64,000 nucleotides of DNA, from positions 1,376,001-1,440,000 of the forward strand of contig CAVWVI010000003.1 of assembly GCA_963758495.1 (NCBI GenBank), in the 5' to 3' direction. A model generated the notes under the pieces. The model was given only the letters and a program-made list of their open reading frames with translations. It was not told the origin of the DNA and searched no databases. This document shows positions 24,781 through 30,697 of this stretch, piece by piece; the stretch's first letter is position 1; each line of letters begins with the position of its first letter. The position numbers and the translations under genes are program-made. Source of the stretch: Oligoflexia bacterium (lineage in GTDB: Bacteria > Bdellovibrionota > UBA1018).

Positions 24781-26218
24781 CTAGCGTTCAAGATCATACG
24801 TTTTGCGAATCTTACTACCTTTTCCAATTTCAGGCAATCTGGCGTGTAGTTTGAAGACGGATTTCTCAACTGCCACCTTGCACGGATTATTTTGCTGAGA
24901 ATCAAAGTAATTTTTGAGTGCTACCTGCATCTGAAGTGAATAATCTAGAGCTACATCTCCCGCGCTAGGAGCCTGGTATTCACAATTTTTTGGGTCAATA
25001 CTACCAAATGGGGTAATCCCTTGTAAATTCCGAAACCAATTCATCTTTTGTTTATCTGAACACTGAATACTACCACCCGACCCTATCATTGGAGCAACAA
25101 TGGGATATTGTGCAGTTGAATGACAGCTTAAACAAGATGATGCTGGATTATCTACTGGGCCATTTAATCTTTTGCCCCAACCAAGATGCACTAACGCATA
25201 CGTTGGCGCCAGAGGACTAATATAGCTTTCAACAGGACGTGCTCCCGTAGTAAATTTTTCAAGCGTAAGTGTTGGATCGTTGCCCCACATCAAACCAACA
25301 AGTTTCATTTTATACCAGGGGATTATCTGACTGCTTTTTGAAATCATAAGCAAATGTTCCAAATACCCAACCTGTTTCTTCTGCTCTTTTGCTACGGATA
25401 GCAAAATCGATTTGTAGTACTCGAAGCTGCTGAATAGATTTCAGTCCATTGCTTCTATTAACTACAAAGCCGGATACCCTAGGAGAATCTGCTAAAATAT
25501 CAGGCCCATCAAACTCCTCTGATCTAGCGTCAGTGAGTAATAGTTTAACAACTGCAGAACCCTCAGGTAATTGACTCTTAGAAAGATCAGGTAAATCACC
25601 CCTCCAAATTTGCCCAATTGAATAGGCCGCTGTAGCATTATAATAGCCTACCGCGTAGTTATTTACAGAAGCACCCTTTCTAAGGCCTAACTCAGGCCCA
25701 ATAATGGGTCGTTCATCTGTCAGACCATGAACAAACTCTCGAGGGTGCTTTCCTGTTGTCATCCACGGAATATGGAACCATTTATGTTTAGAGTTAGCTT
25801 CCGCATACCAATCTGATTTAATCATGCCGTCGTATACGTACTTTAAAAATGAATCAGCATAGCGCTCCGCTTCATTATTTTTTTTGAAGTCAAACTCATC
25901 CCAAGGATACTTTTCATGAACTGCAGATGACGGATAATTCTGAGATAAAATAAACCGCGATCCAGAATAATTTTCTTGCACCTCAGATACAAAGTCAGGA
26001 TAGCGACCCGAACATTGAGCGACAAATTTGCCAGTCGAATTCGGCTTTCCATATGCATCCACTCGAAGGCAAATGGCGTCTTTTGAACATCGAAGGGAAG
26101 CAGGTTCAGGCAATGGAGATGACGTTCCAGTAGCGCTACAAGTTCGAGTAACGATGACATTTAAAATTAGACAGTTAAAAAGCAGAAGAAATAAAAAATA
26201 TTTATATATTATCTTCAC
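24781..26218 (-). pseudogene. secreted protein with CxxCH motif, split by a +1 frameshift at G4 run 25318-25321
   Basis: Removing one base joins ...GWVFGTFAYDFKKQSDNP to WYKMKLVGLMWGNDP...NPASSCLSCHSTAQ. Confidence 0.8.
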
Positions 26219-27415: not shown

Positions 27416-27644
27416 AACTTGAGGTCACAGTCCGTGATCTCAAGTTTTCTTTTGGTTTCAATAAGTTATTATACTTTCCCAATCTTGAGGTCACAGATTG
27501 TGACCTCAAGATTACCCTTAACTTTAATTACTTAGTACGCTTCTCAAACTTGAGATCACAATCTGTGATCTCAAGTTTGCCTTTAATTTTAATTAGTTAG
27601 TTCGTTTTTTCAAACTTGAGATCACAGATTGTGATCTCAAGTTT
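27416..27644. repeat. array of four ~31-bp palindromes (CTTGAGRTCACA-N3-YGTGAYCTCAAG) separated by 34-35-bp AT-rich spacers
   Basis: Units start at 27416, 27482, 27547 and 27613 (period 66/65/66). Central triplets are GTC, GAT, ATC, GAT. Confidence 0.95.
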
Positions 27645-27652
27645 TGCCAAAC

Positions 27653-28585
27653 CTAAAGTGCGAAGAGTAACTTCTGGATTATTTCCACAGTTTCGCAGAC
27701 TGAATTATCCCTCTCAATCGCAGTAGCAATCTTATTATAGGCGTGCATGACAGTGCTATGATCCTTCCCTCCAAAGGACTTTCCAATTTCCTTAAAGCCA
27801 ATACCAGTGTGTTTTCGAACAAGATAGATAGCAATCTGTCGCGGAAGTACAACCTCTCGCACGCGAGAGGGCGCTTTTAAGTCTTGGACTCGCAATCCAA
27901 AATATTTGGCTACAGTCTGATGAATTGAATTGATTTTAGAGTGAACTTTTTTCCCATGAATAAGGTCACCCATTTCTTTTGCTTTAAGTTTATCATTTGA
28001 ACCAAATGCATCTTGTTCTTGAGGATGACTAAACCTGTCATCAACATCAACAGTCGTTGGTTTGTGCAGAACCGATAATGCAGGTGCATTATTAGACGAT
28101 TTCTCCATTAAGAGTTGTTGGATTCCACTCAGTATCATTTTGAATTGACCATCCTGCTTTTGCTCAAGTTGCTCCAATCTGGTCTCAATTTCATCTAATT
28201 TCTCTCTTGATTCGATACCTATACCAGACAGTTGTCGAACTTCTGCAAAAGAGCGCATGATCGCAATATTCACCTGAACTGCTCGACCATTATCAAGAAC
28301 GCTCGAAAGCATTGCAACTCCATGCTCAGTGAATGCATAAGGAACAAAGCGGCGTCCTCCATGCTTTAAACTAGATGACACAATATGTATTTCTAGATCT
28401 TTGCTTTCCTCTAGGGTCAACTTAAACATGAAATCAGGAGGAAATCGGTCGCGGTTTCGTTGAACTGCTTGGTTCAGTACCCTAGTCTGAGTTTGGTAAA
28501 ACTCAGCTAGATCATTATCTAAAACCACTTTATGTCCTCGAACCGCATAAATTCGCCGTTTAATTTCACTAACGGATAACTCCAT
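27653..28585 (-). CDS. ORF6N-domain protein fused to DnaA domain IV (DnaA-box-binding HTH)
   Basis: N-term IYAVRGHKVVLDNDLAEFY...LNQAVQRNRDRFPPDFMFKLT...PYAFTEHGVAMLSSVL. C-term PRQIAIYLVRKHT...EIGKSFGGKDHSTVMHA. ATG at 28585 has a GAGGG RBS (ORF track starts at 28606). Confidence 0.9.
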   Translation of the reverse strand: MELSVSEIKRRIYAVRGHKVVLDNDLAEFYQTQTRVLNQAVQRNRDRFPPDFMFKLTLEESKDLEIHIVSSSLKHGGRRFVPYAFTEHGVAMLSSVLDNGRAVQVNIAIMRSFAEVRQLSGIGIESREKLDEIETRLEQLEQKQDGQFKMILSGIQQLLMEKSSNNAPALSVLHKPTTVDVDDRFSHPQEQDAFGSNDKLKAKEMGDLIHGKKVHSKINSIHQTVAKYFGLRVQDLKAPSRVREVVLPRQIAIYLVRKHTGIGFKEIGKSFGGKDHSTVMHAYNKIATAIERDNSVCETVEIIQKLLFAL

Positions 28586-28705
28586 TTTTAATCCCTCAAA
28601 GCGCAATGAAATGCCACATCGACTTGCAGTAGTCTAGTTATTTCAAACCACATTTATTTTGCCATCAAAATCACTTAAGAGAATACTTGTAGTTCCAGAT
28701 AGTCC

Positions 28706-28811
28706 ATTTTTGCGGTCACATTTTGTGACCACAAAAATACAATAATCCATTTATCAGCCTAAAATTAATGAAAATATCAACATTTTGTGGTCACAAAATG
28801 CGACCGCAAAA
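28706..28811. repeat. inverted pair of palindromes related to the downstream array
   Basis: ATTTTTGCGGTCACA-TTT-TGTGACCACAAAAAT (28706-28738) and TTTTGTGGTCACA-AAA-TGCGACCGCAAAA (28783-28811). The second is the reverse complement of the first with 1 mismatch. Confidence 0.9.
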
Positions 28812-28977: not shown

Positions 28978-29886
28978 ATGCATCAAAAAGCAAAGCCATC
29001 TCCTTGGCATTCACTCTCTCTTTCTATTGTTGCGCACCTTCTCGTTTTATTGATCGCTATGTTTCTAATCCGGATTCCACCTCCTCAAGATAAATATATT
29101 CCATCCATTCAAGTTGAACTGATAGAAAATAAGTCTCACGAAAAATCATCATCAAACGGAAAAAAAGACCACCCTTTAACAAATCAAAGCTCAACTACAG
29201 CTCACACTCAACAGAATGGACACAAAAAACATGTTTCAATCAAAGACCTTGGCATTCATATTCATGGTTTGAAAAAAGAAAAGAACGAAGGAGAGGGTAA
29301 TCCAAGCGATCTATTAGATGGAACTGGTTTTCAAGCCGGTAATAGCTACAAATCCGCAACTGATAAAAACGTCACTCTCTACCATTACATTTATCAAGCC
29401 ATTGATAATAATCTCACTTACCCCTCAGAGTTCATCGACGCGAAGTTTCAAGGAACAGTGGTCACTCAGATCTATTTTGATCAAACCGGGGCGTATCTGC
29501 GCTCCAACTCCAAGTTCCAGTCTCCGCATCCTTACCTTAAAATTCATGTGATTAGAACTCTTCGAAAGGGGCTCGTTAACGCCGTCCCTGAAGCGATTAA
29601 TAAAATCCGAAAACCTTTTTTTCTAAACTGCTCTTTCCGCTTTTATTTCACTGAGAACGGTAACCAGGATCTGGTCAAATCTCAGAAATTTATCGTTGGA
29701 AATCAGCTATTTTTCTATCGATCCGTCCATAAATCAGCACTAGAGTGGGATCTGGGCCCCCTTCATGGGGTAGGGCCACTCGCAAATTTAAATCTTCTTT
29801 GGTTTTTCGAAAAGGGCCACGACCTTCTGTCAAAAAAAGTTAAATTCAGTCCACTCGAAAAGTATCAGGATGATCCCGAATGGTAA
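28978..29886 (+). CDS. TonB/TolA-like energy-transducer family protein
   Basis: N-terminal TM with SxxxH (SIVAH), low-complexity linker, YP...GTV...F...G TonB_C-like domain. Confidence 0.6.
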   Translation: MHQKAKPSPWHSLSLSIVAHLLVLLIAMFLIRIPPPQDKYIPSIQVELIENKSHEKSSSNGKKDHPLTNQSSTTAHTQQNGHKKHVSIKDLGIHIHGLKKEKNEGEGNPSDLLDGTGFQAGNSYKSATDKNVTLYHYIYQAIDNNLTYPSEFIDAKFQGTVVTQIYFDQTGAYLRSNSKFQSPHPYLKIHVIRTLRKGLVNAVPEAINKIRKPFFLNCSFRFYFTENGNQDLVKSQKFIVGNQLFFYRSVHKSALEWDLGPLHGVGPLANLNLLWFFEKGHDLLSKKVKFSPLEKYQDDPEW

Positions 29887-29909
29887 GTAGTTCCTTTAGG
29901 GCTGTTGAC

Positions 29910-29981
29910 AAGCACTGCAAGGAGTCCTATTGCGCCGTAAAGATTTGGATTCCCGGCGCAACAGGACTCCTTGCAGTGCTT
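29910..29981. repeat. long hairpin (28-bp arms, 1 mismatch, 16-nt loop); REP/MITE-like or bidirectional terminator
   Basis: AAGCACTGCAAGGAGTCCTATTGCGCCG ... CGGCGCAACAGGACTCCTTGCAGTGCTT, between convergent genes. Confidence 0.85.
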
Positions 29982-30029
29982 ACCCCGAATGGTAGCTTTC
30001 TCAAAAGACTTGAGACTTGGCTTCAACAG

Positions 30030-30434
30030 TCAATCGACGAATAATCGAATCCCCAAAGTGTCGCAAAGAATTCTCATATCACCATCCCTCGACCATAATT
30101 CAGCATTCAGTTTTTTAGCAGTGAGTGCGATTAGAGCATCATTTTGAAGTGACGCAAGATTCGGCCCTTTATGTGTATTCCAAAAAAGCTTACGAATCAA
30201 ATCTGCTGCACTAGACCAATCTTCCTCATCAGGAGGAGCGGCCACAGGGGCTATACTTTTGTTTAAACTCAACTCCCAAGGTGAACCGGGACGCACTCCT
30301 CTACGAAGTTCATGCAGTGTAACAGGTGAAATAATGGGGGCTCGACCTGAAAGAAGAGCATTCCATGTCTTATCATCGATAGCGCCTCTTAAACGACGAA
30401 TGATGATATTCGTATCAATCAAGAGAAAGCTCAT
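30030..30434 (-). CDS. vapC: PIN-domain (VapC-like) toxin
   Basis: LIDTNII, ELRRG, NDALIA, SRD acidic tetrad. Confidence 0.88.
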   Translation of the reverse strand: MSFLLIDTNIIIRRLRGAIDDKTWNALLSGRAPIISPVTLHELRRGVRPGSPWELSLNKSIAPVAAPPDEEDWSSAADLIRKLFWNTHKGPNLASLQNDALIALTAKKLNAELWSRDGDMRILCDTLGIRLFVD

Positions 30435-30697
30435 CGAAGGCTTTCTAGGTCAAAATCATTCAAATCAAAGTTTTCTTGTATAGCAGTCATCCACTTATCA
30501 AATTCAGATCGCGCTAATTTCTCTCTCACAAGATCATTTATAATTTCAGACTCTGTCATGCTTGAAGGATAAAGCTCTTTAAGTTCCCGAACTTTCGATC
30601 GTGGAATACGCCCCGAAAATACTTTGGTCTTTGTTTCAGTGGCTGACCTTAATGATTTTCGACCCGCTGGCTTAGTTCGAGCCAATAGTTTTTTCAT
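30431..30697 (-). CDS. putative antitoxin
   Basis: 88 aa, ATGA overlap with the PIN gene, RHH-like strand-helix-helix pattern, acidic tail. Confidence 0.7.
   Translation of the reverse strand: MKKLLARTKPAGRKSLRSATETKTKVFSGRIPRSKVRELKELYPSSMTESEIINDLVREKLARSEFDKWMTAIQENFDLNDFDLESLR

Follow-up and report, generated by a model that had tools for sequence, protein, structure and literature searches.

Results

The ORF6N-DnaA fusion gene and its flanking palindromes

The window analyzed here is a stretch of 64,000 nt from contig CAVWVI010000003.1 of an Oligoflexia bacterium. Its minus strand carries a gene (27653–28585; ORF list, Pfam, PADLOC and AlphaFold model) for a 310-aa protein, P0001, in which an ORF6N domain, a coiled coil and domain IV of DnaA are fused, and around this gene lie six non-coding palindromes that are the subject of this work. 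The ORF6N domain (28298–28555, minus strand; G000:C3:1404298-1404555) matches PF10543 at 104.3 bits against a cut-off of 27.8 (E 4e-30), over model positions 2–86 of 86. The family assignment of the earlier note, made from the sequence alone, is confirmed; the fusion with DnaA domain IV was not mentioned there. This second domain (27728–27934, minus strand; PF08299, 96 bits, E 1e-27), which binds DnaA boxes, keeps the R…PRQ and KDHSTVMH motifs, and its fold superposes on 1j1v with Z 17.2 and an rmsd of 1.3 Å over 94 aligned residues. Pfam gives just these two families in P0001, which leaves it without the AAA+ domain III and the domain I of DnaA, and in the predicted model a long helix links the two domains. 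The predicted recognition helix, residues 34–43 (28457–28486, minus strand), was assigned from the AlphaFold model and from covariation with palindrome bases; it contains the two residues that matter below, R35 (28481–28483, minus strand) and Q39 (28469–28471, minus strand). P0001 is also matched over residues 3–157 by the PDC-S05 profile of PADLOC (E 8e-47), and by the 'anti-repressor' profile of PHROGs (E 3e-25).

Each of the six palindromes consists of 11-bp arms around a 3-nt centre. Four lie downstream of the gene, d4 (27616–27640) 12 nt and d3 (27550–27574) 78 nt past the stop codon, followed by d2 (27485–27509) and d1 (27419–27443), with core starts spaced by 66, 65 and 66 nt. Two lie upstream, u1 (28710–28734) 124 nt and u2 (28785–28809) about 200 nt before the ATG, u2 being inverted relative to u1. 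All 11 positions pair in d2, d3 and d4, 10 in u1, and 9 in d1 and u2. The perfect pairing of the d2–d4 arms extends to 15–16 pairs, d3 is inverted relative to d4 with 34-nt arms that are 100% complementary, and a 131-nt duplication, 80% alike, relates d1–d2 to d3–d4. As reported before, the palindromes translate as the segment that precedes GGRR..PYAFTE in ORF6N proteins, namely NLRSQSVISS, ILRSQIVTSR, NLRSQ(S/I)VISS and NLRSQIVISS downstream and LRSHFVTTK in both upstream copies, and the I/F variation of this family segment corresponds to the two orientations of the palindrome centre. Complementarity of centre positions 1 and 3 was considered as an argument for a duplex DNA site and discarded, since its frequency (70%) equals the composition expectation (71%).

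Being stable as DNA hairpins (−14 to −15 kcal/mol), the palindromes could in principle act as RNA, either by terminating transcription of the converging acetyltransferase gene or as an mRNA site bound by the protein. On the plus strand, d1 and d3 do score as terminator-like and face the converging gene, with three matches compared with 1.2±1.1 in shuffles. Against this, mismatches on the coding strand of in-gene palindromes are A·C more often than G·T (40 versus 17), opposite to the bias expected from G·U pairing in mRNA, and are balanced in flanking copies (18 versus 16); copies are also found in either orientation and within reading frames, and an Rfam search of the locus gave no family at gathering score, only chance hairpin matches. 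We regard an RNA function as very unlikely. A promoter scan of the locus remained at chance level (4 matches, with 4.7 expected).

The palindrome is a nearly constant feature of ORF6N genes

The earlier statement that ORF6N proteins typically carry an LRSQ[IF]VTS-type segment at this place proved sound, and the segment is palindromic, with 10–12 of 12 pairs in one fixed frame, in all 68 relatives that could be parsed among 80 loci. The alternative-frame form, ELVTICDRF, was found in 2 of the 120 database proteins among the matches listed. Palindromy of the coding segment in homologues, on which the earlier proposal depended, extends to 189 of 193 non-redundant non-fusion genes that a protein search retrieved (at least 9/11 pairs). 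At least 10/11 pairs are present in 90.6% of 256 genes. When their peptides are recoded with synonymous codons, 0.19% get that far, which shows that the protein sequence does not impose the symmetry. This set leaves out 9 unparsed genes of 265 non-redundant ones; the 120 loci found by DNA pattern are included in it, as in the mutual-information and close-pair analyses, and are excluded from the 193-gene and 170-gene counts. The family itself is very large, 7,995 of 8,000 scored candidates having matched.

The DNA-pattern search gave at least 123 sites in at least 120 loci. Among the matches listed, ORF6N genes contained 83; another 18 were no more than 500 nt away from such a gene, 13 of these lying 45–112 nt upstream of the domain, and 22 had surroundings without ORF6N, 40 of the loci having just 300-nt flanks; unrelated housekeeping genes were the neighbours of 17 of these 22 orphan sites. 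Some ORF6N genes hold tandem in-frame copies, and extra in-frame palindromes at the start of the protein were seen at L034, L015, L025, L047, L054, L062, L147 and L231, mostly in records labelled Acidobacteria. A RhuM-family gene (L253:1525-2382) has an in-gene palindrome of its own, with 10-bp arms and a 5-nt centre, besides an ORF6N-type copy 13 nt from the gene end. The in-gene palindrome may extend to RhuM-type PDC-S05 genes.

Two helix residues covary with the palindrome bases

Outside the segment itself, the highest mutual information with the palindrome bases was found for residues 35 and 39, which lie on the same face of helix 34–43. A table of 170 genes (340 arms) shows G at position 6 in 201 of 202 arms where residue 35 is K, and A there in 109 of 138 arms where it is any other residue. 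The bases 3–4 from the centre vary with residue 39 as follows: Q with CA (172/178), E with CG (64/64), K with TC (38/40), R with GC (33/46) and L with TT (12/12). In leave-one-out prediction 91% and 97% were correct, where the baselines are 67% and 51%. Gln-A, Glu-C, Arg-G, Lys-G and Leu-T are pairings that side chains and bases commonly prefer, as in major-groove reading. The synonymous Ser codon of the left arm also tracks residue 39 (TCA in 85 of 86 genes with Q, TCG in 32 of 32 with E), which Ser codons elsewhere do not. Among 35 disjoint close pairs with at least 80% backbone identity, residue 39 and position 3 changed together in 13/14 cases and stayed together in 21/21, and residue 35 and its base did so in 13/13 and 21/22 (p ~1e-8 for each). 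On the best family tree, whose branch support is poor, the code traits change 40–49 times.

Changes in the right-arm bases also change encoded amino acids, which covary with both residue 35 and residue 39. An alternative is that the helix co-evolves with these amino acids within the protein, template switching at the hairpin copying the right arm to the other one and the outside copies being by-products of local duplication. Such a self-perfecting palindrome would account for the extended arms of d2–d4 and the 34-nt perfect inverted copies of d3 and d4, and also for a dead gene remnant near the replication origin (below), which retains a perfect palindrome of a rare class. It leaves unexplained why non-coding copies follow the helix after the coding copy has decayed (7/7, see below), as well as the pile-up of copies within 100 nt of gene ends, and the segment that would have to carry the covariation has low confidence in both structure models. 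We consider this explanation unlikely.

Loss of the in-gene site and rescue by outside copies

At the place of the family palindrome, the fusion gene of the window holds a decayed copy (28372–28396, minus strand) that codes for LEIHIVSSS, pairs at 4/11 positions and has its left arm shifted by one base against the register, a state that a compensated one-base slip would produce. The one-gap alignment of the repeat to 28396–28368 at 22/30 columns, reported earlier, is the best in the gene and was reached in 0 of 200 shuffled genes. With 4/11 pairs and at most 14/25 ungapped identity to any of the six, the present segment is no longer palindromic, and the flanking palindromes are homologues of the family site, not copies of this segment as first thought. 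An independent short contig (run X1, depth 2), which may derive from a related sample, covers 28267–28417 and agrees at every position, which rules out an error of this assembly as the source of the decay. In the protein the segment corresponds to residues 64–72, some 30 codons downstream of the helix, and is poorly ordered, with pLDDT below 50 from about residue 69. Loss is more frequent in fusion genes, which keep the in-gene site in 3 of 8 parsed cases versus 189/193 non-fusion genes (p 2.6e-6); non-fusion genes of the same order kept it in 36 of 38.

Flanking copies, suspected before to be enriched near ORF6N genes, numbered 31 in the 18,688 nt just upstream, 12 in the 18,665 nt just downstream and 2 in the 326,426 nt beyond 1 kb, i.e. 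they concentrate within 100 nt of the gene ends at 16.6 and 6.4 per 10 kb, compared with 0.06 beyond 1 kb; 7 of the 31 nearest upstream copies are apparent in-frame copies in an N-terminal extension. Such copies are present at 38 of the 193 genes, the other 155 having none within 600 nt. They fit the helix code of their own gene at 2.60 of 4 positions, versus 1.91±0.16 when permuted (0/5000).

Genes whose in-gene site is lost (7/11 pairs or fewer) and which have a flanking copy separate the coding constraint from the DNA site. In 7 of 7, spanning five classes, the nearest outside copy is of the class predicted from the helix, with a joint chance of about 1.5e-6 if the cases were independent, which they are just partly. 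At the gene of the window (R35/Q39), all six copies are of the Q39 type, d2 with G at position 6, and d3 and d4 are exactly of the predicted type, with half-site TTGAGATCACA. The second fusion gene of this genome (C3:1461185, K35/E39) predicts a TCGCA type, which four of its eight copies show, the nearest among them; the Q type is absent from this array. The remaining cases are G107:C464 (R39; three copies with weak scores), G085:C318 (E39; the copy is cut by the contig end), G085:C397 or L403 (Q39; cognate copy upstream), L100 (Q39) and L125 (L39, a class seen in 6/170). At the paralogue and at G107:C464 the amino acids of the segment depart from the helix code, and the outside DNA still follows it. 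G085:C397 is a close relative in which an internal deletion takes most of the coiled coil and domain IV and the in-gene palindrome is lost.

These data bear on the proposal that the flanking copies are silent donor cassettes diversifying the segment by gene conversion or inversion. In its favor, reading the copies in frame gives segments typical of the family, the eight copies at the paralogue are varied, and the I/F variation would reflect inversion of the centre. Yet the in-gene copies of both paralogues have decayed despite six and eight intact neighbours, no homology arms exist beyond the palindrome (6–14 of 30 bases match on either side), most genes have no copy at hand (155/193), flanking copies are overall no closer to their own in-gene copy than to those of other genes, and converting the segment alone would break its match to the helix 90 nt away. 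Run X1 showed no variant letters at the segment, though a depth of 2 says little. We regard the cassette proposal as highly improbable.

Distribution in the genome

A pattern scan of the genome found 15 palindromes of this shape, compared with 0–2 in five block shuffles. With a relaxed profile, 15 sites above 19 bits lie at just three places, six in the window, eight at the paralogue and one at C3:1449614, and the profile scan found no strong palindrome elsewhere in the genome that would point to a regulon. The paralogue (G000:C3:1460482-1462099, outside the window) lies behind the ATP synthase c gene; its in-gene copy is decayed, and its eight upstream palindromes, of at least three classes, are set in a repeated unit of roughly 230 nt. 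Another inverted repeat of this genome, REP- or MITE-like, with 28-bp arms (29910–29981, within 29886–29990 of the window), is present at 74 sites and provides a benchmark for a dispersed mobile repeat. One copy of it lies within 1.4 kb upstream of each of the two ORF6N-DnaA genes.

By this benchmark, the suggestion of a tiny mobile palindrome holds only in its weak form, propagation together with ORF6N genes: 15 sites at three places, against 74, do not amount to dispersal. The palindrome could also be a target of recombination or insertion, its outside copies being scars of past ORF6N genes. The 22 sites without a nearby ORF6N gene, those examined lying between housekeeping genes, speak for this, as do the remnant near the origin, which begins exactly at the palindrome, the tandem in-frame copies, and the frequency of non-cognate flanking copies. 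It gives no reason for a helix code, and no transposase or integrase gene lies beside the fusion gene among the neighbours scanned. As an explanation of the palindrome it seems to us quite unlikely, and as a side effect it can coexist with docking of the protein on its own sites.

The fusion and the replication origin

Of 127 genomes of the class, 5 carry the fusion, with 10 such genes between them, and all of these belong to the family of the window. It was also found in 4 of 401 genomes of a phylum sample and in 11 further database proteins among the 120 matches listed; a metagenome scan with the fusion alignment gave plain ORF6N matches over the N-terminal part and no fusion. In a quick tree, a supported branch (98) separates 21 of 23 fusion or remnant domain IVs from the 20 native DnaA domains, so the domain was not captured recently from the host's own dnaA.

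In this genome oriC is marked by a cluster of 17 DnaA boxes upstream of dnaN, at which the GC skew turns, and neither paralogue is more than 46 kb away from it. The perfect rare-class palindrome mentioned above (G000:C3:1449614-1449680) is 288 nt from the first of these boxes and opens a 55–64-nt remnant of ORF6N coding sequence. In G107 a fusion gene (G107:C260) occupies the place of dnaA in the ancestral order dnaA-oriC-dnaN, 227 nt from 17 boxes; its contig starts inside the gene, and there is no downstream copy. In G075, a palindrome, a domain IV remnant and the fusion gene adjoin the box cluster (277 nt). All three fusion-bearing genomes with an assembled origin thus have a fusion gene or ORF6N palindrome 227–288 nt from the DnaA-box cluster, and none of 30 other genomes of the family has a palindrome or ORF6N gene by dnaN (28 of them covered for at least 1.4 kb). 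No perfect DnaA box is present at either fusion locus of this genome. The native dnaA (G000:C3:1441426-1442941) is interrupted in the assembly by a frameshift that may be a sequencing error. It sits about 8 kb away from dnaN, on the other strand, a separation common to some genomes of the family, others keeping dnaA beside dnaN. A lone DnaA domain IV fragment that runs into a stop codon (G000:C3:1535849-1535983), beside a small helix-turn-helix-like ORF, is possibly the remnant of a third fusion.

Neighbouring genes

The fusion gene has as neighbours an acetyltransferase gene, a PIN toxin-antitoxin-like pair and metabolic genes, and no phage, transposase or integrase gene was found among the eight proteins scanned beside it. 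The PIN-domain gene with its small overlapping upstream ORF (window 30030–30697) is probably a VapBC-type toxin-antitoxin pair. Two overlapping minus-strand ORFs of 302 and 207 aa (window 24781–26218), both Pfam-negative, look like one frameshifted gene.

Discussion

The reading that best unites these observations, to which we give a probability of roughly 0.7, is that the palindrome is a duplex DNA site of the ORF6N domain. As a rule this site would sit within the domain's own gene, which keeps reader and site together when specificity changes; here it would have been relocated to the gene's flanks. Helix 34–43 would read each half-site, residue 39 setting bases 3–4 from the centre and residue 35 base 6. 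In ordinary ORF6N genes the cognate site would be part of the reading frame, some 90 nt away from the codons of the helix, and would travel and switch along with its reader. In the fusion gene the in-gene site has decayed and outside cognate sites, above all d3 and d4 and more weakly the other four, would have taken over and been multiplied by local duplication. The protein would then dock on its own locus and thereby hold down or sequester itself, much like BstA and aba. Self-restraint by docking would be the most likely purpose. That the site was lost inside the gene while outside copies are of the predicted type suggests that it is a real self-docking signal. What the data show directly are the sequences, their palindromy and enrichment, the statistical code, the domain structure and the pattern of loss and rescue, whereas we infer physical binding, a dimeric or oligomeric state, the regulatory outcome, any role in defence and any action at oriC. 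Of the three options first put forward, self-recognition is the one supported, with the amendment that the palindrome encodes a poorly ordered segment some 30 codons downstream of the recognition helix and not the recognition element itself; since outside copies follow the helix though the coding copy has decayed, this option is favored over cassettes or a free mobile repeat.

Several observations weigh against self-docking and should be kept in mind. The resemblance of the ORF6N fold to known winged-helix DNA binders is weak (Dachshund, Z 5.9–6.4; Mbp1, Z 4.2), fold searches having given no clear match, and for a KilA-N-like fold the scores are weak as well (Mbp1, Z 4.2; Bqt4, Z 4.4; Dachshund, Z 5.9). 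In overall identity, flanking copies are no closer to the in-gene copy of their own gene than to those of others (p 0.05–0.5), and the test at code positions was chosen after this one had come out non-significant. A full four-position match was found in 20 of 53 flanking copies, and one position or fewer matched in 10 of 53. Copies of a sister class make up 3/6 at the gene of the window and 4/8 at the paralogue; these may go back to earlier alleles or may serve sister proteins. The best cognate copies at this gene lie past the stop codon, not at the promoter. Of the seven rescue cases, five belong to a single bacterial family, and two came to light by inspection. The borderline genes L200 and L203 (8/11 pairs) have no outside copy. 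Only 3–4 independent pairs sit on supported branches of the tree, all concordant and too few for significance. Finally, the dead remnant near oriC keeps a perfect rare-class palindrome, as self-repair by template switching would give.

A locus at which a protein is accompanied by a cognate DNA element of its own is of a kind already known. The nearest in logic is BstA, a KilA-N-like DNA-binding defence protein whose 63-bp element aba spans the start codon, has short terminal direct repeats and acts as DNA, variants of the two forming cognate pairs (Owen et al. 2021, PMC8585504). As with BstA, a predicted DNA-binding protein would have a short cognate element at its own gene. Here, in contrast, the element is a 25–27-bp palindrome in the middle of the gene or beside it, with a strong statistical code of two residues; the main text on BstA and aba does not contain the term 'palindrom' (PMC8585504). 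Unlike the BstA genes described there, the fusion gene has no prophage location, with no phage genes among the eight proteins scanned.

A role in defence is suggested by two things, the PADLOC label of P0001 and one tested RhuM-type member: in E. coli B, a PDC-S05 gene with a Virulence_RhuM domain lowered phage plating about 1,000-fold for both T7 and T5 (10.1101/2024.09.26.614923). P0001 shares with it the match to PDC-S05 models. The tested gene is given as RhuM and not stated to be ORF6N, and the available text of that report mentions neither a palindrome nor a DnaA domain. With the domain-swapping proteins of the ORF6N/Bro network and with phage antirepressors such as Gifsy-1 AnrP (PMC10111431; PMC4825925), P0001 shares an N-terminal ORF6N and a variable C-terminal domain. 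It differs from them in that its partner is DnaA domain IV and its gene is chromosomal, among housekeeping-type genes; the parts of those papers that bear on these proteins describe no DNA site. Phage collections contain few close relatives (5 of 50,697 records; two viral loci).

Sites within the gene of their own reader are found in the lambda O iterons and in intragenic operators, and recognition codes in the LacI and C-protein families. The ORF6N palindromes resemble these in that the site lies in or beside the gene of its reader and residues covary with bases. They differ in that one in-frame palindrome occupies a fixed, family-wide position across many phyla, where it determines the amino acids encoded and can change class from one close relative to the next. 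In open-access papers and bioRxiv, supplements aside, we found no account of ORF6N palindromes or of an ORF6N-DnaA fusion. What is new at this locus is the pattern of loss and outside rescue, together with a family-restricted fusion to DnaA domain IV and its tie to oriC.

The domain IV of the fusion has the fold of known structures (PDB 1j1v, 3pvp, 8btg) and their R…PRQ and DH[ST]T…H motifs, and should also let the protein bind DnaA boxes. Unlike DnaA, it comes without the AAA+ domain and hence cannot open the origin. We can picture ORF6N more broadly as a widespread, self-addressed DNA-binding system with a fast-switching code of two residues, of which the fusion would be a two-handed version that grips both palindromes and DnaA boxes, tethering or blocking oriC, and is kept in check by its palindrome array. 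The protein may then be a brake on replication during infection or stress, or a selfish hitchhiker of the origin. This wider picture is tentative and, in our judgement, rather unlikely. It draws support from the fusion genes or palindromes close to the DnaA boxes in 3 of 3 genomes, against 0 of 30 others, and from the position of both paralogues near oriC; the site on the side of oriC belongs to a gene remnant and is of a class cognate to neither paralogue, which speaks against it. The fusion may act at the origin, or may merely have arisen there, at the old dnaA-oriC junction.

If self-docking is right, a very large and uncharacterised family, labelled so far as antirepressor or defence candidate, would gain a DNA target and a simple code from residue to base. 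The locus described here serves as a natural control that intact genes cannot give: its non-coding copies follow the helix after decay of the coding one, which separates an explanation at the level of DNA from one at the level of the protein. It bears as well on a question raised for BstA and aba, namely how a cognate DNA element restrains its protein, and its fusion with DnaA domain IV points to a possible link between the ORF6N system and the control of chromosome replication.

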